In this document: positions 1-59,338 of the stretch, piece after piece
How the letters are laid out: each line of letters begins with the position of its first letter
Numbering within the stretch: the stretch's first letter is position 1
DNA from: a virus
IMG/VR virus record: IMGVR_UViG_3300046714_000544
Location: 5,169-69,168 of that record
DNA length: 64,000 nt
Reading direction: 5' to 3' (one strand)
Position numbers and translations under genes: made by a program
The notes under the pieces: model-generated
What the model was told of the DNA's origin: nothing
Databases searched by the model: none
What the model saw: only the letters and a program-made list of their open reading frames with translations

Positions 1-491
1 TGACTGGTCCGACGGCCTCTGTCTCTGGTGCCCTCTCCTACCCGATTCTGGAGAGCGCGTGGCAGTCGGTGGTCATTGGCCCCGAGAAGCCTGACCTGAT
101 GATCACGAGCAACCTCGGTTTCTCGTACATCAAGATGGTCTTCCAGCCGCAGCAGAGGTTTGAGGAAGTGGATCCGGATTACGGCTTCACTACGCAGAAG
201 TTGAATGGGACGAAGATTGTGGCGAGCAACTACACTCCTGGAACGCGAACGGCCACCACGGCGGATACGAAGGTTGGCTACACTGCGGTTTCCTCGGGTG
301 AGACGCTCTGGTTCTTGAACACGAAGAAGTTCAAGTTCTACATCTCCACGGATCCTCTCTTCTCCTTCGGCTTCACTGGCTTTAAGGTTGCGCAGGATAG
401 TTTGACTCTCGCGGGTCAGTATATGTTTGCGGGTACGTTTACCTGTCAGGCACCTCGCTACAGCCGATACCTGTTTGCGATCACTGGCTAA
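1..491 (+). CDS. Major capsid protein, C-terminal part (5' truncated by window)
   Basis: Frame is open from the window start. The C-terminus KPDLMIT..QPQQRF..NG..IVA..Y.PG..LWFLNT..FGFTGFK..AGQY..TCQAPR resembles HK97-fold capsid P-domains and is followed by decoration-like genes. Confidence 0.8.
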   Translation, partial: TGPTASVSGALSYPILESAWQSVVIGPEKPDLMITSNLGFSYIKMVFQPQQRFEEVDPDYGFTTQKLNGTKIVASNYTPGTRTATTADTKVGYTAVSSGETLWFLNTKKFKFYISTDPLFSFGFTGFKVAQDSLTLAGQYMFAGTFTCQAPRYSRYLFAITG

Positions 492-3145: not shown

Positions 3146-3829
3146 GTGGCAGCCTATCAACTCACGACGATCGCGTCCATCATCACCCGGCTAGGGCAGC
3201 GGACGGATGGGATGGATACAAACGTCTTCTGGGTTGAGCAGGAGAAGCTGGATGCCATCAATGAGGCGTTGAGGGTGTGGCAGTGTTTGGTGGGGCAGTT
3301 TGAACAGCTGTTCAAGCAGAGCGCCTCGCCTGCACAGACGAATAGTTTCTTTCCGGTCCCGCGGCAATTTGCATCCATTACCCGGGTGCTTTACAACGGA
3401 AATCAGTTGACGCTTCTGTCGTTGAATGAGCTTGATAATGGCTATCCGGATTGGGTGAATACGCAGGGGACGCCGCTTTATTGGGCGCCGGTTGGGGCAA
3501 GCAACATCGCCCTGTATCCGTATCCTGTTGGTGGGGAGTTGACCTTCTACGGTTATCGTGATCTGCTGAAGCTGGGGCCGATGGATTACATCATCATCGG
3601 TAATGAGGAGCTGACGCGGGTGTTGGAGTATGCGGAGCATTACCTATCCTTCAAGGAGGGGATGACGGAGATGCAGGCCTCCTCGGACGCGCTAGATAAG
3701 ATGGCAGCTGCGGCGGCTTACAAGAATGGGCGGATTAAACAGACAGAGTATTTCAAACACTACGCCGGACTTGATAGGGAGAATACGCAGAGACCTATGG
3801 CAGCAGAGCAGGGAGTGGGGATTCGGTGA
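3146..3829 (+). CDS. Head-tail adaptor / tail tubular A-like protein
   Basis: FW..QEKLDAINEALRVW, GTPLYW, ALYPYP, LEYAEHYLSFKEG pattern. Confidence 0.6.
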   Translation: MAAYQLTTIASIITRLGQRTDGMDTNVFWVEQEKLDAINEALRVWQCLVGQFEQLFKQSASPAQTNSFFPVPRQFASITRVLYNGNQLTLLSLNELDNGYPDWVNTQGTPLYWAPVGASNIALYPYPVGGELTFYGYRDLLKLGPMDYIIIGNEELTRVLEYAEHYLSFKEGMTEMQASSDALDKMAAAAAYKNGRIKQTEYFKHYAGLDRENTQRPMAAEQGVGIR

Positions 3830-4170
3830 GACTGAACTTCATCGAGCCGGATATCTATGTGTATACGATCACGGAGCTTGACCCGGCGACGGGGACACCG
3901 AAGACCCGCGAAATTCCCGCATTCACCTGCGGCCACTGCACGACGATTGTGGGAGTTAGGTTTGACAGGGTGCGCCCCCGGACGCGCTGTATGTACTGTA
4001 GGAAGTTGTTGTGTGAGGTGAACGAGTTGTGCATGGCTGGCTGTACCCCCCTTCATTCCATGGCGAAGGATCGGTTTGAAACGAAGGGGCCATGGACGCA
4101 GTTTTTGGATCCAATTATGAAAGGTGCCACGACCTTGGAAGAGGCGCAGGCAGGAGGTTTGAATGGCTAA
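3826..4170 (+). CDS. Cys-rich (zinc-binding) hypothetical protein
   Basis: CGHC, CMYC and CEVNELC motifs; GTGA overlap with the upstream stop. Confidence 0.55.
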   Translation: MRLNFIEPDIYVYTITELDPATGTPKTREIPAFTCGHCTTIVGVRFDRVRPRTRCMYCRKLLCEVNELCMAGCTPLHSMAKDRFETKGPWTQFLDPIMKGATTLEEAQAGGLNG

Positions 4171-4633
4171 CTATTCGTCCACGATCAACGGGCAGGCACT
4201 TTCGGTCACCCTTGACACTATGACTATTATCACCACGGCTACGGGTCAGGGCTCGGCGGTTGCGCTGAAGGAACTGTACCTGAGTGGTGAGTCGAGCGCC
4301 AGCGCTTATAACAGGGTGGTGCTGAACCGGCCCGGCTCGGTTGGAGTGACGCCTGTTGTGGTTGCGGTCACGAAGTTGCATCCCGCGTCGGTTACGCCGC
4401 TCTTCACGGTGGCGAGCAATGTGGGTGGTAACGCGTGGACCACGAACCCGGTTATCAGTGCGACCGACATTTTGATCCCTGGGTTGAACACCTTTGCGGG
4501 GCAGATGCATTGGTACGCCTTGCCGGGGTGTGAGGTCATTGTGGGTACTCAGGGTGCGGTTGCGAACCTCTCCCTCAGGAGCCGATCGGGCACGAGCACG
4601 ATCAGCGGGCACATGATCATCGAGGAATACTAA
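4163..4633 (+). CDS. Virion structural protein
   Basis: GGAGG SD; beta-rich Thr/Val/Ser protein. Confidence 0.55.
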   Translation: MANYSSTINGQALSVTLDTMTIITTATGQGSAVALKELYLSGESSASAYNRVVLNRPGSVGVTPVVVAVTKLHPASVTPLFTVASNVGGNAWTTNPVISATDILIPGLNTFAGQMHWYALPGCEVIVGTQGAVANLSLRSRSGTSTISGHMIIEEY

Positions 4634-4656
4634 CTCCTCTAAATAGAAGGAGTTAG

Positions 4657-5136
4657 ATGTCCACCTTCATCATCTCCGTAGAGAAGGTCTCCCCTCTCCA
4701 GATACAGATCGGCACGCCGTCAACGTGCGCTGTGGAGGTGAGGGGTTGGTCTGCCTGGGCGGAAGCTTCGGTGGGCTCGACGAGTCATCCTCACTTCTAT
4801 CGCCCGTCGATTCCGGGCACAGCGCGGTTGTCGGCTGAGTCGAATAGGGTGGGGTCGCTGAACCAGCCGGGCAGGTATAGTCAGTGCCAGGTGATCAGCT
4901 CCTTCTCTACCAACCCATCCTACCCCGATGTCATCCCGATGAGGACTAATCTGCCCTTTCGGCTCACGGTGGATTTCCCGCCCAAGCAGGGGATCATCAT
5001 CCTCCCGGATAGTTATGGGTGTTTGTATGCAAAGACGGACTTCATCGGGCAGAGTGCGACGAAGGCAGCTCAGACAGGGAGCGCGACGCCGGGTGGGTTT
5101 CTTTGGAATGCGTCTGTCATCTGGGAGGAGTTGTAA
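4657..5136 (+). CDS. Virion structural protein (possible paralog of 4163-4633)
   Basis: AAGGAG SD; similar size and C-terminus (IWEEL vs IIEEY). Confidence 0.5.
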   Translation: MSTFIISVEKVSPLQIQIGTPSTCAVEVRGWSAWAEASVGSTSHPHFYRPSIPGTARLSAESNRVGSLNQPGRYSQCQVISSFSTNPSYPDVIPMRTNLPFRLTVDFPPKQGIIILPDSYGCLYAKTDFIGQSATKAAQTGSATPGGFLWNASVIWEEL

Positions 5137-6294
5137 GTGATTAGGCCAATCCTCTCCCGTAACTTCGCCTTTATCAGTAAGCATACGATCAGCGGCACGT
5201 CGCCGGCTGCTGACGATATGAGCAAGTATCCACGCTTCTTCCGCTCCTCCTATGACATTGTTGATAACTGGAAAATCATGCCGCCAGTTGCGGCGATCTA
5301 TGTTGAGCCCCTCATCAGCATGCCGGCGGTTAGGCAGTATACGGAGGAGGGGTTTGTTGGGGTCAGCGTAAGGAAGAGGCAGAATGCGAAGGTGGGGCGG
5401 ATCCTCGCCTCCCTTGTGCCCCTGCCGAATGTGACTAGGTTGTTGACACCGGACCCGAACCTTGTGCCGACCTTCTACGCAAGATCCTCGCAGGCGTTCC
5501 CGTACGCTGCACTGCTGGCAAGAAGGCAGCAGGTGAAGAAGCAGCGGATGGCGGCTATGTATGTGGAAAGTCAGGCGCAGATTGGGCGAGTGCAGACACT
5601 ACCCTTCACTGTCTATAATGCCACGGTTGGGGAGATCCTTTCGGAGATCCAACGGCACCTGCTTGAGCCGATTGTGGATGGCGGGAAGACCTGGCAGCTT
5701 TGGAGTAAGGTGGAGGTTTGGAACTATCTCCGAGAGCGGTGTTCGAGGTTCTTGATCGACACGGGTGTGGTGACGGATATTGGGACCTTCCCCGTGGCGA
5801 ATGGGGTGAGTGATGTGGACCTGGATGCGACGCTTGCAGAACTTCGTTCAGTGTGGGTGAGTGGGAGTGGGGGGAATAGGGCGCTGACGTCGCAGGATTT
5901 CTGGATGCTTGACAATGGGCTGCCTGGGTGGGAGTCGCTGAATTCCCCACCGGCCTATTACATTGAGGATCCGGTGAGCCCGCTTTCGATCACCCTTGTG
6001 CCGACCCCGTCCATTGCGGAGACTGGGACGTACTCGTATGTGAAGAGCACGCCGCTTGATTCGCCCTCCGGGAGTGTGACGGATAGCAACGGCCTCTTCA
6101 CATTGGAGGGGTTCTTCCTACGTCTGCCGGCAATTTTCTCCTGGGCGGTGAAGTATGGGACGATGGCGGATATGTTGGCGAAGGAAGGGGAGGCTAATGA
6201 TCCACAGAGGGCGTCTTACTGCGAGCAGAGGTATCAGGAGGGGGTTGAATTGGCAAGGTTGATGGTGGGGACGGTTTCAGGGGGGCAACGATAA
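5137..6294 (+). CDS. Adaptor-like tail protein with N-terminal extension
   Basis: C-terminal half resembles 3146-3829 (WS..EVWNYL, LDNGLPGWE, LVPTP, VKYGTMADMLAKEGE). Confidence 0.55.
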   Translation: MIRPILSRNFAFISKHTISGTSPAADDMSKYPRFFRSSYDIVDNWKIMPPVAAIYVEPLISMPAVRQYTEEGFVGVSVRKRQNAKVGRILASLVPLPNVTRLLTPDPNLVPTFYARSSQAFPYAALLARRQQVKKQRMAAMYVESQAQIGRVQTLPFTVYNATVGEILSEIQRHLLEPIVDGGKTWQLWSKVEVWNYLRERCSRFLIDTGVVTDIGTFPVANGVSDVDLDATLAELRSVWVSGSGGNRALTSQDFWMLDNGLPGWESLNSPPAYYIEDPVSPLSITLVPTPSIAETGTYSYVKSTPLDSPSGSVTDSNGLFTLEGFFLRLPAIFSWAVKYGTMADMLAKEGEANDPQRASYCEQRYQEGVELARLMVGTVSGGQR

Positions 6295-12920: not shown

Positions 12921-15900
12921 TTGCCAAAGTATTCGCTCAACGTCTTTGGCACTAACTACGACATCGACTCAGATAGGGATCTGAGTGATGATGAGTTGCG
13001 GACGCATGCTCAGTCGTTGATGGGCAAGCAGGACTCGATCAGTAAGCCTCCCACACCTTCCACGGATAATGGCTATGATGCCTCCACCGGACTGCTTCCT
13101 GGTTGGTTGAAGGAGGGGGCATCGAAGGTGATGGGGACTATCGGTCTGCCTGCACGCGCAGGATCGATGGCGGTTGATGTGGCTTCTGCGGAGGCACAGA
13201 GGGCGGCAGCACAAGAGCCGCGCGAAATTTCCTCCGATGAGAAGGATGCCCGGATGGTGCGGGCGCTTCGGTCGAATGCTGTTCCTGGAGCGGATATCAT
13301 GGACCAACCAGCGCAGGATCCCTCGCAGCCGGTGCGGATGGGAACTGAGACGGTGGTTGAGCCTGGCGCGAATCTGATCACGGGAGAGGGTGTTCATACT
13401 CCTGGGATGGGCGCGCAGAGCTTGAAGGGGCTGCAGGATATTGGGAATCTGCAGATCAATGGGCTCTCGGTTGAGCCAGATGCCTCGGCAGCGCAGACGG
13501 TTGGGGAGCGGAAGGCGGCTAATAAGAAGCTGTTCGAGGGTGCGGGAACTCTAGGTCGTGTGGGCAAGTTTGCAACCAGTGGCGCGGAGATTGCCACCGG
13601 AATGGCCCTTGATCCTGCGGTGGCTATGTTGGGGCCACTTGGAGAAGCCTCACAGAGTTCTCTCATGGCGAAGAGGGTGTTCACTGGGCTGCAGCGAACC
13701 ATGCAGGCAGGGATGGGTGTGGATTCGGTTGAGGGGCTCCATGACTACTGGGCCGCGGGGAATAAGTATGGGTGGAACAGTCCTCAGGCTGACGACGTTG
13801 GTGCCCAGGTGCTTACCAACATCGGCTCGATTTTGGGCCTTGAGGTTGCGGGGCATTTGGGGAAAAAGGCGGCGGAGGCTGGGAAAGCATCCGACACCAT
13901 CCAGCCCTTCGATCATGAGTTCCCGGAGCCGACAGCGCCTGCGATTGAGGAGCACTTCGGCAGTGGGGAAGCGGCGAAGCCGGAACTACTGGATTATACT
14001 GGCACAGCTCCAGAAGATCGTCAGCATGCCCCGAAGGACTTTGACACCGACTTCACCCCACCGCCGGTAAGGCCGGAGGGGCTTGAGGCGCAGCTCCAGG
14101 CGAAGAAGGAGGCGTTGAAGGGGAAGCCTATTGATGAGTTGCTTCCACCTATTGCCCCAGAGGCCGCACCTTCCTCCAACATCCGCTCGCCCAGGGAACA
14201 GTCTCTTGTTGATCAGGTCAACGAACGCCTTGACTATGAGGGCCTGGAGAAGGGGACGCCGGAGAGGCTTGCGCGGGGGAAGGAGATGCTGGCAGAGGGG
14301 GGCCTGCGAAAGGGGCCTAGGGCGGAGATGCTGGCGGAGAATGTGAGGGAGGAAGCTCCCAGGGAAGAGCCCATGGAGGTTGTCCATGAAGATGAACTGA
14401 CTCCTCCATCAGCAATCAGGGAGTATAGGGGAGAGATCAATGAGGGGGCTAATAATGCTCCCGAGGCATCCGTTGCCCATCTGAACCGCGTCCTCCAGAG
14501 TGATACTGGAAGGAAGGTTTACGATGCTCTAGAGGGGGCGGTGGGGATGCTGGATCCCGCTCTTGTCACTGGACCTGGGAAGGCGCAGGCTGGGGAGTTC
14601 GGCGGAATGGGCGCGGATTTTGCCGACACTAACAGCCGCATTCATGGCTTTAGCCAGAACGAACGCTCGCATGTTGACATAGCTTCCATCGCCGCCGAGG
14701 CAGTGCACAAGGGAGGTATTGAAGCTGAGGATAATGGGGCGGACCGAGGACAGGCGACTGTAGATTATTTTGTGAACAAGCTCTTGGATAACTATGTCCA
14801 TGAGTTTACCCATGGGCGTACTGGGGCACGGCATAATAATATGCCGTATGGTGAAAGTGGAATGACTCATAATGAGGCGTTCCATGAATTGTTTGACGCG
14901 ATGAAGGATAAGACATCGGAGCAGCGCCGGTTGCTTGAGACGCAGCTTAAGAAGCAGATTAACCTAGATGATGTGCTTCAGCTTAAGCGGATGGAGCAGG
15001 TGTTTCATTCAGAGGCATCAAGAGAACAGCGGGGTAATGGTGTTGATGCTAATGCTATGGTGGAAACGAATAAGGCTAGCGAGCCGCCAGAGTGGAAGCA
15101 GCTTGATCTGGATGAGCTGAGGGAGAAGAATAATAGGGAGGAAGGCTCCACACCTCTCTTCCACGCCCTGGCGCGGAACCTGATCGAGGGTGGCCGGGAG
15201 GTTGTGCGCAATCCTGGCGGCGCCCTAAAGCAAGTCGCGCGGACCAGTGAGCAGCTGTATCAGGCGGCCCTTGCGGGCGGCTTCCGGACGGCGGAGAGGA
15301 ACGTGGTCGCGGCCTCGGCGGAGGGTGGGTTGATGGCGATGGCCGACGGCCTTCAGGCGATCCGCCACACTCTCACAGGGAATAAGGAGATGGCCGGAGA
15401 ACATACGGCCAAGTTGCAGCAGAGGGTGAAGAATATTGCATCAGGGCATCTGTTGACATCATTGGCCGATACGATGGGGATGATGGTGGGGAAGGAGTTG
15501 CCTGGGAGGGTCGCGGGGGATAACCGCACCCTTGAAGCCATGGGCAGTGATCTTGTGCCCACCGACCTCCACGAACGTTTCCGCCACCTGATGGCATCGG
15601 ATGTGCAGACGGCGACGGGATCCCGACAGCTGACGAAGACGGAAGCAACGGGTCGGTTCATGATGATCTTCAATGAGCTTCAAGAGAGGTCTGCACGGCT
15701 GGGCGTTATGAAGGTGGAGCTGGCCCCGGTGATGAAGAAGTTTGCGGCGAAGGATTACAATGATCTGTGGCAGAAGGCGCAGGATGACCCGATCGCGAGG
15801 GTGGAGATTGGGGATGCCCTGGCAAAGGCGGAGACGGCCGCGCTTGAACGGACGAAGGGACTCGGCCCATCTGGGACGAAGTATGGTCAACAGCCTTACG

Positions 15901-17474
15901 GTTCCACAGCCCAGGGGGAGATTGCCAGGAAGGCAACAGCCTTCCTCAACAGCATCCCAGGCGTGAAGATCGTCACCCCCTTCACCAACTACACTATTAA
16001 CAACTTCATCGTGAACTTGTTGGAGAAGAACCCGATCACCGCCAACCTCACCGAGCGGGGGAATAAGGGGATTATGAATGCGTATGAGGGGGATATTCAG
16101 GGGTTGAAGGGTAGTATCGGTGACCTCCGTACCATTAGGAAGCAACGCCTGGATCTTGAAAAGCAAGCGCGGGATCAGTACAAGACCCTAGACGACTCCA
16201 TCCAGCTGAAGTTGCAGAATGCCGTACCGGGACAGAAGGGAAAAATCCGCTCCCAGGGGTTCAAGGATCTGCGCGATCTGAAGCAGCAGTGGGAGCAGAA
16301 GATTCAGCCCCTCCGGCAGAAGGAATACGCCAAGCAGTCGGATGTTGTCGGGCTTAGGAATAAGACGGAGAAGATGCAGTCGGGCGGGGTATACTCTGGC
16401 AGTTACAGGGCTGCCCTCACAACCACTGGGCCGTTGCTTATTGGCCTGGGGATGCTTGCTCGAATGCGCCGCGGGGAGGATGGCCTTGATGCTCTCCAAA
16501 CCCCTGGTGAGAAGGATGAGAAGGGGAATAAGCGGGTCAGGAACCTTAGCAGCCTGGTGGGGGGTGCGTCTCCCTACCTGATGGTCGGAGACTACCTGGC
16601 ACGGACGTACCTCCTGAAGAGTGACTACTACAACGGCCGTACCGGGAAGAAGGCCCTTGAGAGTGTGCAAGGTGGTGGGGCGGGACGGCCTGGGCCGGGG
16701 GACATCGTGGCCGCTGCTGGGGAGGGCGACCAGAAGTTTGCCGATGTGGTGAGGAAGTGGGCGAGTGGTGTGGGCGCCGGTTTTGGCAAGATGGCCTGGT
16801 TGGGGGACGTTCTTGATGCGGCTCGGGAGAGCCAGCTTGGGAAGAAGCAGACCGGCAAGCGGCCTGACCTGACGCGGACGCCCTCGAAGGAAGGTGTCCT
16901 ACTGCAACCGTTGAAGAGGGGCCTGGAGAGTAAGGTCGCGCCTGAGAAGGTTCAGGATGCTTACGACTCCAGCAGCGGGGAGAAGAGGGAGATCCCGGCC
17001 TTCTGGGATACCGTCCTTCATCTGGGTGCCTCGGAGCAGAAGTTGTCCCCCCTCAGTCAGTTCGTTCAGCGCCACCCTGATATCAGTCCCGCGGCGGTTT
17101 TCATGAAGCAGGCAGGCGTCCCGGAGTGGGATGATGCACGATACAAGGTGTTCCGGGAGCGGCTGGAGAAGGAAGTCGTCCCGGTTATCGAGGATGAGTC
17201 AATGCCGGATAACGTGAAGAAGCAGTTTGTTCAAACCCGCATCCGTAATATCATCACGAACGCTGGGGCAGAAGCCAAGAGATCTCTTCCGCCGACGCTG
17301 GTCCCTGAATCAGTTCGCGCGCAGACAGAGAAGAAGGTTCAGGGAGAACAAGTGCGCCGGGAGAATCGTAAGCTATTCCGCGCCCCCAAGCATAGTGGAG
17401 GGCTGAAGAAGAGGGAAGAGAAGAAGTTTGAGAAGGCACTTTCCGAAAGTACGACAGAAGGGGATCATTCTTAA
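12921..17474 (+). CDS. Large ejection/polyvalent virion protein with HExxH metallopeptidase motif
   Basis: 1517 aa; last structural gene; contains YVHEFTH...HNEAF. Confidence 0.6.
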   Translation: MPKYSLNVFGTNYDIDSDRDLSDDELRTHAQSLMGKQDSISKPPTPSTDNGYDASTGLLPGWLKEGASKVMGTIGLPARAGSMAVDVASAEAQRAAAQEPREISSDEKDARMVRALRSNAVPGADIMDQPAQDPSQPVRMGTETVVEPGANLITGEGVHTPGMGAQSLKGLQDIGNLQINGLSVEPDASAAQTVGERKAANKKLFEGAGTLGRVGKFATSGAEIATGMALDPAVAMLGPLGEASQSSLMAKRVFTGLQRTMQAGMGVDSVEGLHDYWAAGNKYGWNSPQADDVGAQVLTNIGSILGLEVAGHLGKKAAEAGKASDTIQPFDHEFPEPTAPAIEEHFGSGEAAKPELLDYTGTAPEDRQHAPKDFDTDFTPPPVRPEGLEAQLQAKKEALKGKPIDELLPPIAPEAAPSSNIRSPREQSLVDQVNERLDYEGLEKGTPERLARGKEMLAEGGLRKGPRAEMLAENVREEAPREEPMEVVHEDELTPPSAIREYRGEINEGANNAPEASVAHLNRVLQSDTGRKVYDALEGAVGMLDPALVTGPGKAQAGEFGGMGADFADTNSRIHGFSQNERSHVDIASIAAEAVHKGGIEAEDNGADRGQATVDYFVNKLLDNYVHEFTHGRTGARHNNMPYGESGMTHNEAFHELFDAMKDKTSEQRRLLETQLKKQINLDDVLQLKRMEQVFHSEASREQRGNGVDANAMVETNKASEPPEWKQLDLDELREKNNREEGSTPLFHALARNLIEGGREVVRNPGGALKQVARTSEQLYQAALAGGFRTAERNVVAASAEGGLMAMADGLQAIRHTLTGNKEMAGEHTAKLQQRVKNIASGHLLTSLADTMGMMVGKELPGRVAGDNRTLEAMGSDLVPTDLHERFRHLMASDVQTATGSRQLTKTEATGRFMMIFNELQERSARLGVMKVELAPVMKKFAAKDYNDLWQKAQDDPIARVEIGDALAKAETAALERTKGLGPSGTKYGQQPYGSTAQGEIARKATAFLNSIPGVKIVTPFTNYTINNFIVNLLEKNPITANLTERGNKGIMNAYEGDIQGLKGSIGDLRTIRKQRLDLEKQARDQYKTLDDSIQLKLQNAVPGQKGKIRSQGFKDLRDLKQQWEQKIQPLRQKEYAKQSDVVGLRNKTEKMQSGGVYSGSYRAALTTTGPLLIGLGMLARMRRGEDGLDALQTPGEKDEKGNKRVRNLSSLVGGASPYLMVGDYLARTYLLKSDYYNGRTGKKALESVQGGGAGRPGPGDIVAAAGEGDQKFADVVRKWASGVGAGFGKMAWLGDVLDAARESQLGKKQTGKRPDLTRTPSKEGVLLQPLKRGLESKVAPEKVQDAYDSSSGEKREIPAFWDTVLHLGASEQKLSPLSQFVQRHPDISPAAVFMKQAGVPEWDDARYKVFRERLEKEVVPVIEDESMPDNVKKQFVQTRIRNIITNAGAEAKRSLPPTLVPESVRAQTEKKVQGEQVRRENRKLFRAPKHSGGLKKREEKKFEKALSESTTEGDHS

Positions 17475-17859
17475 AGTAGTTGTCCCAGACGCCGGGCATG
17501 ATGTGCTTCCTGGCGACGGTGTTGACAGCATCTAGCCAGGAGTTGCGAACAACCGCGCCGTAGGTTCCTGGGACGTACTGATCAGCGGCGACAACAGGAA
17601 CACCGTTGAAAGTAACCGTATCCCAGCTTTCACTGGTGATACCTGAAAGATAGCGCTGAAAACGGGGCTGGCTGGTTGTGATGGTGGTGGAGAAGTCGTA
17701 ATGGCCTATGGGCTCATTAGCTGCCCCCATGTCCCATTCATCAGCCCAGTCACCGTTGTCCCCAAACCACCCCGCCGGCTTTTCTTCCCCACACTCGCAC
17801 CAGTTGTATTTGTCGTAGGCGTGGGTGTGGGGTTGCCAGGATTCTTCAGGTTCGCTCAT
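17254..17859 (-). CDS. Hypothetical protein containing major-capsid-like segments
   Basis: GGAGA SD plus ATG; QPRFQRY..WDTVTFNGVPVVAADQYVPGT aligns with this phage's MCP; 3' end overlaps the large virion gene antisense. Confidence 0.6.
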   Translation of the reverse strand: MSEPEESWQPHTHAYDKYNWCECGEEKPAGWFGDNGDWADEWDMGAANEPIGHYDFSTTITTSQPRFQRYLSGITSESWDTVTFNGVPVVAADQYVPGTYGAVVRNSWLDAVNTVARKHIMPGVWDNYFKNDPLLSYFRKVPSQTSSLPSSSALHYAWGRGIAYDSPGALVLPEPSSLSARELIQGPASAEEISWLLPQRS

Positions 17860-18006
17860 TCAACTTCTCTCCACAGAATGGGCAGTAGACAATCGGTACC
17901 TCGTTCTCCTCATCACAACTTCTGATGGTCCCATCCTCTAGAATGGTCGGCACACAGGCGTAGCTAACGGCTGCGTGAAACACTTCCAACCCCTCGCACG
18001 TGTGCC

Positions 18007-19158
18007 CTAGAACTTCCACTTCTCCAACCCTCCCATCGTAGGCCCTATCTTAGCCTCCACCTCAATCGACATCCCACCCAACTCCTCCCATCGTCGTTCC
18101 ATCGACTCCCGCATCATTTGAAGAATCCGCCGCTCCTCTCCAATACGCACCTGAGCAGTGATACTATCATGCGTGGGAATAAGCAGACTGAACGTCGTCC
18201 CTTCCTCAGGATGCCCACCGAGATCTACTAGGATCGTGCGCAACATTGCCGCCCCGGTTGACTGGGGCAAGAATGCCAGGCACTCCGATGCCTCCCTTGA
18301 CGGCGCCCCCTCCTTGTCGAGGACATTGAAAAAGCTGAGAGAGAAGCCGAAGGGTGTAGTAAGCCTCCCCTGGGTGTGCGCCTGCATCATTGTCGTGTTT
18401 TGCCATTGGACTATCTTCGGAAAGGCCCGTTCGATGACGGACCTGATTTCCTTTGTCTCCTTCACTGACTTGCCAAGGGTGCGCGCCATGTTGTATAACC
18501 CCTGGCGGTAGTTGAATGCGTTGTTGGCGATCTTTACTATTTTGTATTCGGTGGGGTAGCCGCCTTTAAGTCCATCGAGGTAAAGTCCCAGTGCTTTATC
18601 ATCCATTCCCAAGTCAGCGGGGCGGCCAAGGTAATGTGATAATACGAAGGCATGGGAACCCAACTTCGCGACTCGGATGTAGTCGGGGTCGTTGGCGAAG
18701 AATCCCACAAGCGTCGGCTCAATTGCTCTCCAGTCTAGTTCAACTAGGTGATATCCGGGATCAGGGAGGAAGGAGCTGCGGATGATTGCAGCTGCCTCTT
18801 CCATGATTTCGGAGCCGCGACCCTGCGGCAGGTTCATGAGGTTTGGCCGCTTGGCAGCAAGCCGGCCGGTTTTGACGGTCGTATAGAGGGGATGGATCTT
18901 TCCGTCCAGCCCTACCATCGCCTCCCCTAGGTAGCTCTTCGCCTGCTTGTAATGGCGGGCATCGAGGGTTAGGCCAAGGACTGCATCATCGAAGAACTTG
19001 CTGATGGACTCATTGTTGCTGGTCGGCTTCTTCGTGGTGCGATGGAGGGGGATCTTGTATCCCTTCCACTTCATGTAGTCGAGGACTTGCTTTGGGGAGA
19101 GGGGGCTGAAGGGCTCCGCGCGTGCCCACAACAGTTGTTCTTCTAGAGGGATCTCGAT
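18007..19158 (-). CDS. Family A DNA polymerase, polymerase (C-terminal) half
   Basis: TGRLAAKRPNLMNLP, motif A ELDWRAIE, motif B KIANNAFNY, motif C PTHDSI; probable ATC start 7 nt after GGAGG. Confidence 0.9.
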   Translation of the reverse strand: MEIPLEEQLLWARAEPFSPLSPKQVLDYMKWKGYKIPLHRTTKKPTSNNESISKFFDDAVLGLTLDARHYKQAKSYLGEAMVGLDGKIHPLYTTVKTGRLAAKRPNLMNLPQGRGSEIMEEAAAIIRSSFLPDPGYHLVELDWRAIEPTLVGFFANDPDYIRVAKLGSHAFVLSHYLGRPADLGMDDKALGLYLDGLKGGYPTEYKIVKIANNAFNYRQGLYNMARTLGKSVKETKEIRSVIERAFPKIVQWQNTTMMQAHTQGRLTTPFGFSLSFFNVLDKEGAPSREASECLAFLPQSTGAAMLRTILVDLGGHPEEGTTFSLLIPTHDSITAQVRIGEERRILQMMRESMERRWEELGGMSIEVEAKIGPTMGGLEKWKF

Positions 19159-19361
19159 CGATATTCCTCCATAACTTCCTGCGTAATATCGGTAGTGTCA
19201 AAGTCGTTGTCGGAGCTAGGCACATGATGAACTACATCCCAGATGGAGCCCTCATGATCCAGTATCTTCAGCCAACTCAGCACGTCTCGCCTAAGCCAGA
19301 TGCGCACCTGAACATCATCCCCAGAGACGCAGCTCATTGATAGGATCCAGCATTCTCTCAT
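19143..19361 (-). CDS. Hypothetical microprotein inside the split polymerase locus
   Basis: GGAGG SD plus ATG; 72 aa. Confidence 0.55.
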   Translation of the reverse strand: MRECWILSMSCVSGDDVQVRIWLRRDVLSWLKILDHEGSIWDVVHHVPSSDNDFDTTDITQEVMEEYRSRSL

Positions 19362-19532
19362 CTAGTCCTCCCAAAAATGATCATCCCAATGCTCCTTACA
19401 CCTAGCACACCAATCCCCACCCCAGCCGAAGAGCCACCTTAAACGGTCGCTCTTGAATTCTCCATCACCCTCTGGGCATATGCGGGCATCGGTAGGAGTG
19501 TACTCGTCGTAGTCATCGGACTCCAACATCAT
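19362..19532 (-). CDS. Hypothetical acidic Trp/Cys microprotein (56 aa)
   Basis: MMLESDDYDEYTPTDARICPEG...CARCKEHWDDHFWED; GAGG SD; ATGA overlap with the upstream ORF. Confidence 0.5.
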   Translation of the reverse strand: MMLESDDYDEYTPTDARICPEGDGEFKSDRLRWLFGWGGDWCARCKEHWDDHFWED

Positions 19533-19726
19533 TGCACCTCTCTAAGAATGTTAACCTCAACCTGCTCACCTAGGAACCGCTCCCAGCATCCGTCACACCC
19601 GAAGTGGAGTTCCCTGGCAAGGCGACTGACTTTCGTCTGGTCTTCCCACGGGAGGATGTAGAGGTAGGCCCGGGTTGCGGGTTCTCCACACCAGGCGCAT
19701 CCCTCTTCTTCCTCTTCTTGGGCGAT
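19529..19726 (-). CDS. Zinc-finger microprotein overlapping the polymerase N-half tail (start uncertain)
   Basis: CAWC...CDGC motif in an alternate frame. Confidence 0.4.
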   Translation of the reverse strand: MAQEEEEEGCAWCGEPATRAYLYILPWEDQTKVSRLARELHFGCDGCWERFLGEQVEVNILREVQ

Positions 19727-21306
19727 GCTGGCTTCTCTAAGCTGAGCCCGAAGCTCGATTGCTGGGTCAACTGCTGGAGGAGGAGATACGCCTGCGCCTG
19801 GCCCCTTGTCCTCACCTTTCCCAGCAACTGCCCCTCCGTGCCTATAGCGTACCACGTTTGGAGCGGCACGGGGACTAGCTGCCTCACCTGGACCATCTTC
19901 CCCTCCTCCCACTTCCCCTCTTTCCGCAACTTCTCCTCTGACGATTTGAACACCTTAACCTTTCTGCACCCCAGTGGGGCGATGTGTTGTAGTTCAGCGA
20001 TGCATCGTTCCATCTCTTGAAGGAAGTGGTCGAAGCCTTTCTTCCTGATGTCTCTGTCGGTCCGTACCCCGCGGTTGCTCATCCGGTCTAGGATGATCCG
20101 GAGTTGGATGTACTGCTTGTCGAAGGACTCCCAACGGCCCTGCTTCTCCAAACCCGCCCTACCGTAGTTGAAACAGCGCAGGAGGACATCGGAGTCCGCG
20201 GCGTTATACCAAGCCGGGTTCGTCCCACTCTCATCCTTCCAGTAGTGCATGTCTGGTGTGGCGAAGGTGGCGATGTACTTCAGGCCAGCCGGCCAGGACG
20301 GTTCGAAGTGATGCCAGACGTCCATGTTGTCAACGATCGGGCCGCCGAAGACGACTCCGGCATTCAACAGCCGGGGGCAGTCGAAGTGCTGGTTGTGAAC
20401 TAGCTTCCACCCCGGCAACCCCAGCAGCTGTTTGCACAGGGTGATGTAGGGCTCTGTCCACGGGACGCTGATGGCCTGGAAGGGCTTGAAGGAGAAGGAG
20501 ATCCGTAGGATGGTGTAGGAGGGATCATTCTCAACAACATCCTCCTCATCATCCATCCCGGCCTCGATGTCGCCATCCTTCTCATTGCGTGCGCTGTATG
20601 GCGTCTCGATATCGAAGGCGAGGGGTGGGTAGCCTGCGGCCGCGTACTCTGCAATGAACCGTGCCAGGGCCTGTGGTGGCGGGTCGCACTGGTAGAACTT
20701 TGCCGCTTGGATCTTGCCAAGTCGGGCCACCGCCAGGGCCTTCATCAGGTCATGCTGCCAGACCCGGGTCAGGTGCCAGTTGCCCCGCTGGATGTAGGAG
20801 GGATGGTAGGTGGGGAGGACCAGGCCGTAGGGGCTGTCATACACATACCCGCGGCGTTTTTCAATCCCCCAATGGCCGGTGAACCACCTCATCGGTGTGT
20901 TCCCGAGCGGCATGATGACGCGGGGCTTGACCTGATTAAGAAGCTCGGTCAGATAGGGAGAGCAATTCCTAATCGCGTCATGCTCGAATGGTTGCTTGGA
21001 GAGCTTGTTGTCTGGTGGCCGGCAGCGGAGGACGTTGCTGATCAGGAAGTCATCCCTCTTCAGGGGGAGGTTGTTAACCGGGTCCATTTGCCGGGTGATC
21101 ATGCGATCCAACGTCTGTCCCGCTTGGCCGACAAAGGGGCGACGGGTGGGGACAGGTCCTTGCTGTCTCGCCTCATCCTCCCCAAGGGCCTCGCCGACCA
21201 TCATCACGCCGTGCTTTAGGAGACCGCTAGAAACAACGTACCCGCTACCAATGTGGGCTAGCGGGCAAGGGGCGCAGCGGTCGGGTTTGTTGCTAGGTAG
21301 GGCTAC
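19570..21306 (-). CDS. DNA polymerase N-half: uracil-DNA glycosylase-like (family 4) plus 3'-5' exonuclease domains
   Basis: CAPCPL, VGEALG..E, PFVGQAG, NVLRCRPP, PTYHPS (UDG-4); FDIET, HNQHFD, YNAADS (Exo I-III); RMSNRGV thumb start. The conserved CxxC lies upstream of the ORF-track start, implying a GTA start at 21306. Confidence 0.85.
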   Translation of the reverse strand, partial: VALPSNKPDRCAPCPLAHIGSGYVVSSGLLKHGVMMVGEALGEDEARQQGPVPTRRPFVGQAGQTLDRMITRQMDPVNNLPLKRDDFLISNVLRCRPPDNKLSKQPFEHDAIRNCSPYLTELLNQVKPRVIMPLGNTPMRWFTGHWGIEKRRGYVYDSPYGLVLPTYHPSYIQRGNWHLTRVWQHDLMKALAVARLGKIQAAKFYQCDPPPQALARFIAEYAAAGYPPLAFDIETPYSARNEKDGDIEAGMDDEEDVVENDPSYTILRISFSFKPFQAISVPWTEPYITLCKQLLGLPGWKLVHNQHFDCPRLLNAGVVFGGPIVDNMDVWHHFEPSWPAGLKYIATFATPDMHYWKDESGTNPAWYNAADSDVLLRCFNYGRAGLEKQGRWESFDKQYIQLRIILDRMSNRGVRTDRDIRKKGFDHFLQEMERCIAELQHIAPLGCRKVKVFKSSEEKLRKEGKWEEGKMVQVRQLVPVPLQTWYAIGTEGQLLGKVRTRGQAQAYLLLQQLTQQSSFGLSLEKPASPKKRKKRDAPGVENPQPGPTSTSSRGKTRRKSVALPGNSTSGVTDAGSGS

Positions 21307-22317: not shown

Positions 22318-22718
22318 AGGAGGCCCTCCTCAGCGAGCAGGTAGTTAAGCTCCCCCAGAGTCGCTCTAGCAACCCGCACTGCTTTCTCTTCTATCTCTGG
22401 GTCATCTCTGTCTTGACCACTCAGATACTCTTGCCCTTCCCGCGTAGAGATATCGAACTGCTCTCCGGTTTGAAACTCATACACACCTCCGGGGCAAGAG
22501 GCCATGAACTGCCTTCCCGAGGCTTTATCCTGATAGACCCATTGAAACACAAAGGCATAAGTCTCTACGCCGACCTTTAGCCCAGTATACCAAGGAACAT
22601 TTGTCACGAACCCATTACTAGCTTCCGGTACATTCTTCATGATGACATCATCAAGGTGATCCTTGAAGTTGGGGTAATGCCCACAAGTAGGGCACACTTC
22701 TCCATTCTGATAACTCAT
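22314..22718 (-). CDS. Hypothetical protein
   Basis: ATGA overlap; CPTC motif. Confidence 0.5.
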   Translation of the reverse strand: MSYQNGEVCPTCGHYPNFKDHLDDVIMKNVPEASNGFVTNVPWYTGLKVGVETYAFVFQWVYQDKASGRQFMASCPGGVYEFQTGEQFDISTREGQEYLSGQDRDDPEIEEKAVRVARATLGELNYLLAEEGLL

Positions 22719-23452
22719 CCCTTAAACGCCTTCCTTTCCCGGTCCCACTTGCCGCAACTTGTACAGAAGATCCTCCTATACTTCAACTCGCCCACAATGG
22801 ACGTGCCTCGGTATTGAATATGCCCGCCACAAACGCGGCAGGTTGCCTTGTCATATGCCCTGGGGTGGGCATTATCAAACGGCCGCAGGCGTAGGTATAG
22901 CTGCTCCAGGGTCTGCACGTCCTGTTCGCAATACTTCGCCATCGCTCGAAGGGAAGCAACATCGCCCGCGAGCACCCGCATCCACCAACCCGGCCACTCG
23001 TCCCGAGTCTTCATATGCTTCTGCTCGGTCAGCCCAAGCGTCAGTGCCAGGTTCTGCAGTCTGTTGCTGGTGAAGTTCGCCACGCTGCTGGCAATGAACT
23101 TCGTATCCCGCATCTTCGTCATGGGGATAGGTGGGAGGTTGTTGATGAGAAGGCGCCCTTGAAAGAACCGGCGATCGAACACGGACCCGTAATGGGCAAC
23201 CGTGATATCCGCCTCGTTAAGAAGCTTGGATGCCGCCTTCAGGAGCTGCTTATCATCGACAACATACTTACGACGTTGACCCGGCAGGCCGCCGAAATCT
23301 TCGAGGGTCATGGAGTGGGCCTTCTTTTCCCCCAGCCACTTCCAACCGAAAACCGCCAGCGACCCCAGGTCACTCCTCAGGGCGTTGACCCCGATGGTCT
23401 CCACGTCCCAGATCAGGACCTTGGGTGCTGTTTCCACACTATCAATCTTCAG
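22715..23452 (-). CDS. RNase H-like (DEDD) exonuclease with C-terminal zinc ribbon
   Basis: LIWDVET, AHYGSVFD, YCEQDV; CRVC..CTSC; probable CTG start 7 nt after GGAGG. Confidence 0.8.
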   Translation of the reverse strand: MKIDSVETAPKVLIWDVETIGVNALRSDLGSLAVFGWKWLGEKKAHSMTLEDFGGLPGQRRKYVVDDKQLLKAASKLLNEADITVAHYGSVFDRRFFQGRLLINNLPPIPMTKMRDTKFIASSVANFTSNRLQNLALTLGLTEQKHMKTRDEWPGWWMRVLAGDVASLRAMAKYCEQDVQTLEQLYLRLRPFDNAHPRAYDKATCRVCGGHIQYRGTSIVGELKYRRIFCTSCGKWDRERKAFKG

Positions 23453-58742: not shown

Positions 58743-59210
58743 TGGCATGATTATTGCAGGTGATGTAAAAAGATGTGAAAGGGTTCGCCTTTCATTCGCC
58801 CCACTTGGCATGACAATTGATATGCCAACCATTGGCACATTCCTTGCTACCCTGCAATCGGCGTGCCACGGGAAAAAATGCCGGCACTCAAAGGGCGTGC
58901 CAGGGAAATTTGCCCGATTTGCTGGCACGAGAAAGTGAGAGCAAGAACCGTGCCAGAAATGGTGCAGGATGTTGCACTTCGTTAACAAACTTTTACAACC
59001 GTTGGCTGGCACGATTGTTGCTAGGATGTAAAAAGATGTTAACTGATCAGCACTTACAGCCCATGGGCAAGAAGCGTGCCAACTGCTGGCATGAAGATTG
59101 CTAGCATGCAAAAGAGGTGCCACCCCGCGCCTGCAATAGGTGTGCCAGCGGTAAGTCCTTTAGAATGAGTAGCTTACCTCGTTGGTTGGTTGTCTGCAAG
59201 GGTCGTGCCA
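58743..59210. promoter_or_regulatory. Array of sigma54 (RpoN) -24/-12 consensus sites in both orientations
   Basis: Ten TGGCAY-N5-TTGC matches (4 on +, 6 on -) plus 3-4 near matches. Confidence 0.85.
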
Positions 59211-59338
59211 ACTTTGTAGGGGGTTAGGGGGTGAGTGAAGGCAATTTTATTTTTCAAATTCTGGGGAATGGCCCCAAAAACCAATCCCTGTAAGTTGTTG
59301 AAAACCGCGAAATTTCGACTTTCAAAAAGGCCAAAATC

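Follow-up and report, generated by a model that had tools for sequence, protein, structure and literature searches.

A replication-arm reading frame of a soil phage contains three re-ordered segments homologous to the major capsid protein

The window analysed here comprises 64,000 nucleotides (bases 5169-69168) of the soil phage genome IMGVR_UViG_3300046714_000544, a virus record of 69,168 bp that has direct terminal repeats (G000). At positions 17254..17859 of its minus strand lies an open reading frame (ORF), P0002, of 201 amino acids (aa) plus stop, the last gene of the minus-strand replication arm. ORF P0002 contains three segments homologous to the major capsid protein (MCP), in a non-native order behind an acidic leader. 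Its sequence properties make a functional gene probable. Somewhat below even, on the same sequence evidence and on analogy with known assembly factors, we place the fuller proposal that it is a real lineage-specific accessory gene for a mosaic working as a look-alike of an MCP contact surface.

Three capsid-derived pieces in one reading frame

ORF P0002 falls into five parts, all on the minus strand. Residues 1-50 (17710..17859) form a leader that is acidic and Trp-rich, as had been noticed at the outset (13 D/E, 2 K, 0 R and 5 W; net charge about -11), carries an HxH...CxC stretch and does not resemble the MCP. Piece 1, residues 51-75 (17635..17709; G000 22803-22877), corresponds to the C-terminal strand pair of the MCP (MCP 319-342); piece 2, residues 80-103 (17551..17622; G000 22719-22790), to a hairpin and loop conserved among MCPs, FNG...ADQYxPGT (MCP ~244-266), here longer by one residue; and piece 3, residues 107-140 (17440..17541; G000 22608-22709), to the N-terminal arm of the MCP (N-arm; MCP 2-35), including the helix DPLLxYFRK, its final 12 codons lying antisense to the last codons of a convergent 1517-aa virion-arm gene. 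Residues 141-201 (17257..17439) are a Ser/Pro/Leu-rich run-on tail, antisense to the same gene and again not MCP-like. All on the same strand and in the same frame, the pieces follow the order C-terminus, mid hairpin, N-arm and are separated by joints of 3-4 residues. The original prediction was right that a C-terminal piece precedes an N-terminal one, but it counted two pieces where there are three. Of the alignment on which it was based, the half in which TFNGVPVVAADQYVPGT resembles KLNGTKIVASNYTPGT (FNG...DQYVPGT) stands, whereas QPRFQRYLSGIT pairs with the MCP C-terminus, APRYSRYLFAIT, and not with QPQQRFEE.

Homology to the MCP is supported piece by piece. In BLASTP, ORF residues 107-140 share 21 of 34 positions with MCP 2-35 (48.5 bits, E 2e-11), and residues 52-75 share 12 of 24 with MCP 319-342 (E 1e-4). 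Comparison by hhalign with a profile of the MCP family, built, like the alignment used for structure prediction, from 34 sequences of the 120 homologs listed, gives the N-arm piece a probability of 97.6% (E 2.8e-12); the likeness to an MCP N-terminus named in the original prediction is a true homology. With the MCP profile, hmmsearch delineates three domains in the ORF (59.6 bits in total), at residues 51-75 (profile 320-344, 13.6 bits), 80-103 (246-268, 7.8 bits) and 107-140 (2-35, 35.1 bits). When each piece is scored alone, none of 2000 shuffles reaches the real score, which is 19.1 against a shuffled maximum of 6.7 for piece 1, 13.1 against 3.2 for piece 2 and 40.1 against 4.1 for piece 3. 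The earlier claim that the ORF is built from MCP segments is borne out by all of these comparisons. The leader scores at chance level against the MCP profile (363 of 2000 shuffles reach its score), and the tail yields no domain with it.

Scanned in six frames with the MCP profile, the 69,168-bp genome yields nothing besides the MCP and the three pieces (E 2.1e-10 for the N-arm, 8.8e-4 for piece 1 and 0.066 for piece 2), and a BLASTP search of 349 minus-strand frames against 28 structural ORFs returns no further fragment copy, its one marginal match (E 0.009) involving an unrelated ORF pair. The pieces sum to 83 residues, about a quarter of the MCP fold, and 111 of the 201 ORF residues are unrelated to the MCP. 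A complete colinear HK97 fold is absent, the matches covering profile positions 2-35, 246-268 and 320-344 of 345 in reversed order. Nor is the ORF a circular permutation, in which the halves are swapped and the whole fold is kept, as about three quarters of the fold are missing.

The genuine MCP (P0003), the source family of the pieces, is a protein of 343 aa encoded at G000 4628-5656. Its gene starts 541 bases before the window, so that the N-terminus lies outside it, as originally stated; only residues ~181-343 are inside, the C-terminal 162 residues being encoded at 3..491 on the plus strand and the remainder at G000 4628-5170, upstream of the window. The protein matches NCBIfam NF033394 (capsid_maj_Podo) with 110.7 bits (cut-off 80) and also PHROG 9953. 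Its AlphaFold2 (AF2) model has a mean predicted local distance difference test (pLDDT) score of 80.4 and matches HK97-fold capsid proteins in the PDB. On this model, piece 3 corresponds to the N-arm with a helix at residues 28-36, piece 2 to a hairpin (E244-248/E251-255) and piece 1 to the last strand pair (E316-329/E336-342), which we take, by canonical HK97 topology, to be the crossing from the P domain to the A domain. Over residues 1-20 the pLDDT is 33-34, and the N-arm is disordered in the free MCP. INPHARED contains two cultured relatives and no more, both Tunturiibacter phages, at an MCP identity of 25%.

In two distant relatives (G018 and G024), the MCP gene is interrupted within the region coding for the N-arm, around codon 23-24, by ~200-270 bp. 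The stretches concerned are G018 58884-58958 and 59164-59229, and G024 14811-14888 and 15162-15215. The G018 insert (L089:1565-1739 = G018 58948-59122) matches the group I intron family RF00028 with 41.6 bits (E 3.1e-8; gathering score 50), and the G024 insert has no Rfam match.

Coding evidence, divergence and the junction between the arms

Over residues 1-140, codon log-odds are positive in the ORF frame only, at +0.20 to +0.25 per codon (mean of 15 reference genes, +0.32), and the GC content at third codon positions (GC3) is 0.63-0.66, against 0.68 in the reference genes. The ATG comes directly after an in-frame TGA and is preceded by a Shine-Dalgarno site, GGAG, 9 nt upstream (at -13), like many confident genes of this phage. 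The log-odds and the Shine-Dalgarno site favour a gene over a decayed duplication remnant, in agreement with the original prediction. Third codon positions are saturated relative to the MCP gene (29% and 4% identity), and first and second positions keep 63-74%. Within the pieces, all ten family-invariant MCP columns are kept, and the ORF equals the consensus at 17 of the 19 MCP columns conserved to at least 90%. These coding and conservation signals, with the frame shared by all pieces, are what lead us to regard ORF P0002 as probably functional. The arrangement is not an assembly chimera, since contigs from four other runs, of soil or rhizosphere, show no difference from the window and together bridge the end of the virion gene, the piece junctions, the leader and the start. 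From a further soil run, X3, a 151-base contig matches 35 bases of the N-arm-coding stretch (17487-17521) with 5 differences and then continues in unlike sequence; it may come from the MCP gene of another phage or from another N-arm copy.

The alternative that survives best, although we hold it to be rather unlikely, is a non-functional scar, left when fragments of a related phage's MCP gene were pasted by illegitimate recombination at the convergent arm junction and still open by chance behind a usable start. The scrambled order does resemble messy recombination, and the 61-aa tail (log-odds -0.32 per codon in the ORF frame against +0.33 in the opposite-strand frame of the 1517-aa gene) is probably not selected as coding in the ORF frame. 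Moreover, very long open frames, up to 399 aa, are common antisense to structural genes in this GC-rich genome (11728-12927(-), 15459-16166(-) and others), so that length by itself says little about whether an ORF is a gene. Debris would, however, have had to place three fragments on the same strand and in the same frame, a coincidence reckoned at ~1 in 36, to join them through 3-4 residues, and to leave 128 ORF codons without a stop in otherwise non-coding DNA, for which the estimated chance is ~1% per frame at this base composition. A scar also fits poorly with log-odds confined to one frame, with the Shine-Dalgarno site, with the retention of every family-invariant residue and with the recurrence of N-arm copies in other small proteins of this MCP family (see below).

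The divergence of the pieces bears on their origin. Compared with 114 MCPs over 81 aligned columns, the ORF shows identities of 40-58%, sharing 43 of 81 residues with the phage's own MCP and up to 47 of 81 with others. In a tree it occupies a long branch (0.72), and the own MCP is not its sister (support 0.61). We reject an origin by recent duplication of this phage's MCP gene: the nucleotide sequences agree at 58% and 44%, agreement at third positions does not exceed chance, and the own MCP is not the nearest family member.

Several results weigh against a functional mosaic. No ortholog of ORF P0002 was found among 1.84 billion representatives, where the six matches were the ORF itself, three truncated or short MCPs, one repetitive protein and P0127 (discussed below), nor in a word-index search of 5.8 billion, where one of 163 candidates held and was again the ORF itself, nor in a pattern scan of IMG/VR, nor by tblastn against INPHARED. 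Nor is there any polymorphism among the four runs. The nearest sizeable relative, G001, does not carry the ORF, and conservation in relatives, which the original prediction had named as a check, is thus not seen. At the 81 columns, median identity between the ORF and MCPs is 0.48, against 0.57 among MCPs, although their range of 36-100% leaves the pieces within the divergence of real MCP lineages, as a scar would also have it; and 10 of the 81 ORF residues are unseen in any MCP, a number reached by 3% of MCPs judged without close kin. The sequence data fit both an old copy under selection and a recent capture from an unsampled MCP lineage, unbroken by chance.

Family searches with the ORF were likewise negative. 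Pfam, PHROGs and NCBIfam hold no family for it; NF033394 (E <= 0.1) and PHROG 9953 (E <= 0.01), which match the MCP, give no match from ORF P0002; a PDB sequence search has a best E of 0.1, to unrelated enzymes; and the ESM Atlas contains no usable match.

The ORF stands where the two arms of the genome converge. The plus-strand arm, up to 17474, carries genes for the portal, a scaffold-like coiled-coil protein of 277 aa (G000 3742-4575), the MCP and further virion components, and the minus-strand arm, from 17254 onward, consists of replication genes including a family A DNA polymerase split over two ORFs. Upstream of ORF P0002, between the polymerase stop and the virion-gene stop, lies a Cys-rich ORF of 57 aa with a CPFC motif (17846..18019, minus strand), whose end is overlapped by ORF P0002 over 14 nt and which has weak PHROG matches only (phrog_1494, E 2e-4). 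It too is missing from G001, where 13 nt separate the stop codons of the polymerase and the virion gene, so that the two ORFs represent a ~530-bp insertion into the junction, a setting that a recombination scar would share. With the DNA polymerase as query, no close IMG/VR relative was found and JGI metagenomes gave relatives of 36% and 22%; with only such distant relatives, the junction is comparable in G001 alone. Between 16800 and 18300, neither a sigma-70-like promoter nor an intrinsic terminator was found.

The convergent virion-arm gene of 1517 aa (12921..17474, plus strand; stop at 17472-17474) has its last 73 codons opposite ORF residues 129-201, so that the antisense overlap first described at the N-arm helix is real. 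The C-terminal 399 aa of its product match a 1448-aa G001 protein that stops at the equivalent place, and no family was found for it among Pfam and PHROG. The last ~10 residues, coded opposite the N-arm helix of ORF P0002, are unconserved relative to the G001 homolog, and the end of the gene may, judging from this comparison, have been rewritten by the insertion. The 1517-aa protein also contains a HEFTH (HExxH-like) motif. The ORFs for the family A DNA polymerase, in the replication arm, occupy 18007-19131(-) and 19570-21207(-), the upstream one with an N-terminal domain of the uracil-DNA glycosylase (UDG) superfamily, and the ~440 bp between them hold small acidic Trp/Cys-rich ORFs (19143-19361 and 19362-19532). 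A separate C-terminal polymerase ORF, of 394 aa, is also present in G001.

N-arm copies in other small proteins

As a module, the N-arm of this MCP family turns up again in other small proteins. Two of them, P0127 (91 aa) and P0128 (123 aa, on a 61.6-kb contig), combine a twin-arginine-like leader with an N-arm copy. Residues 40-96 of P0128 match NF033394 positions 1-56 (E 1.1e-5, below the family cut-off), and the leaders of both proteins match TIGR01409 weakly, with 14.8 bits (cut-off 16.7). ORF P0002 resembles these proteins in carrying an N-arm copy of the same MCP family outside the MCP gene, but it is longer, has two more MCP pieces and begins with an acidic N-terminus that lacks an RR or hydrophobic stretch and has no NCBIfam match. 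By hand count, its N-arm is identical to that of P0127 at 18 of 34 positions, not above the 21 of 34 shared with the phage's own MCP. A search of IMG/VR with an alignment of P0127 and P0128 found nothing.

Extra N-arm copies were also sought in the records of 5 and then 28 relatives (>25 kb; 28 of 56 related loci), with the ORF and an N-arm profile. One further copy emerged, in an 84-aa protein of relative G004 that joins a Zn-ribbon-like part to the N-arm (L064:1540-1794, minus strand). Against an MCP profile that excludes it, this protein scores 9.1 bits (E 3.6e-5), a score that none of 2000 shuffles reaches; the 69 bits obtained with the N-arm profile are circular, as that profile included the protein itself. 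A protein of this type is missing from the other 27 of the 28 records scanned, and the G002 counterpart of the gene flanking it is only 29% identical and located elsewhere. Like ORF P0002, the G004 protein is small and carries an N-arm copy, here at the C-terminal end, and its gene closes a minus-strand block, with an overlap into the 3' end of a convergent gene. Unlike it, the protein has an N-terminal CxxC...C...HC domain, a single MCP piece and a weaker score. In a literature search made mostly at the level of titles and abstracts, no report of phage genes built from MCP fragments was found.

A putative look-alike of a capsid contact surface

If ORF P0002 is functional, the mosaic would consist of an acidic Trp-rich leader, three re-joined MCP peptides and an unselected run-on tail, and the MCP-derived part could act as a look-alike that competes with the genuine MCP for the partner of the N-arm. 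Such competition would follow from the pairing of the N-arm with a neighbouring subunit in mature shells. As described in PMC11922011, the phi29 scaffold binds the MCP N-arm, which later joins the neighbour's E-loop in a beta-sheet; according to PMC5644958, the helix-and-hook of the 80alpha scaffold contacts the N-arm helix and the A/P cleft of the capsid protein (CP). By analogy, the partner would most likely be a scaffolding protein, either the phage's own, in which case the mosaic would act as a brake on timing, or one supplied by a relative or satellite infecting the same cell, and the outcome would be modulated or poisoned capsid assembly. Taken alone, this mode of action is a tentative proposal to which we give rather less than even weight. 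Titrating the phage's own scaffold, moreover, looks costly to the phage and has to be set with the points against the proposal given above. A complex prediction for the MCP (34-row alignment) with ORF residues 44-145, run with no controls, gave a score of 0.00, which speaks neither for nor against the proposal, and the AF2 model of ORF P0002 made with no alignment is unusable at a mean pLDDT of 33.9.

A broader form of the same idea, doubtful on the present sequence evidence, would make ORF P0002 a natural interface mini-protein, in which elements of the MCP docking face (the N-arm helix, the last P-to-A strand pair and the A-domain hairpin) are re-joined as a soluble competitor that titrates scaffolds or capsid-binding factors of rival phages, satellites or host sensors. 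The ORF would then be one of a broad class of accessory genes with N-arm copies, comprising twin-arginine-like fusions, Zn-ribbon fusions and the mosaic.

An immune decoy or antagonist, the main function suggested by the original prediction, appears improbable. The mosaic would in that case display MCP epitopes and occupy a host capsid sensor without triggering it. That such sensors exist is clear from CapRelSJ46, which newly made MCP activates by direct binding according to PMC9712102, although nothing in this precedent is specific to ORF P0002. A gene of the replication arm could be made before the MCP, counter-defence genes are often optional and lineage-specific in the same way, and conserved MCP surface motifs are kept in the pieces. 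A faithful copy of the trigger would, however, be expected to fire an abortive-infection sensor earlier rather than block it; nothing marks the N-arm, disordered in the free MCP over residues 1-20, as a sensed epitope; and no capsid-sensor decoy was found in a literature search.

Least of all do we favour a real gene acting through its leader, for instance as a nucleic-acid mimic or a binder of a basic host protein, with the MCP part as a spacer or degradable tail: the leader's net charge, its five Trp in 50 residues and the presence of other small acidic Trp/Cys-rich ORFs in the same arm (such as 19362-19532) would suit this very improbable reading, but the leader has no detectable relatives or family, its log-odds barely separate the frames (+0.18 against +0.15), and it is the MCP-derived part that shows the strongest coding signal and keeps its residues best. 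A paralogous relationship between the leader and the phage's other small acidic ORFs was rejected, the best E within the genome being 0.03.

Returning to the look-alike of an MCP contact surface, the protein predicted from ORF P0002 differs from the phage's own MCP in lacking the E-loop, the spine helix and most of the A and P domains, in its location in the replication arm and in its unrelated leader. Additional products derived from an MCP gene are known in T4 gp24 and T7 gp10B, both of them colinear, full-length parts of the virion with genes in the late region; ORF P0002, by comparison, encodes a short scrambled mosaic. Closer in its logic is CpmB of the satellite SaPI1, which, as reported in PMC5644958, mimics the C-terminal helix-and-hook of the 80alpha scaffolding protein. 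In both cases a short assembly-interface peptide would be copied, in SaPI1 by a mobile element, to compete for the N-arm and A/P-cleft site. CpmB, however, copies the scaffold side, whereas ORF P0002 copies the capsid side, its function being proposed from that likeness, and no CpmB-type scaffold motif is apparent in the ORF, which among 28 plus-strand structural ORFs, the scaffold-like protein included, is similar to the MCP only. If ORF P0002 is functional, phages would recycle short interface peptides of the shell protein into small regulatory or warfare proteins, even scrambling several of them, and the ORF would offer a way to identify the binding partner of the MCP N-arm in capsid assembly among soil phages of this uncultured group. 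It would then stand as a capsid-side counterpart to the scaffold-side mimicry practised by satellites such as SaPI1 through CpmB.

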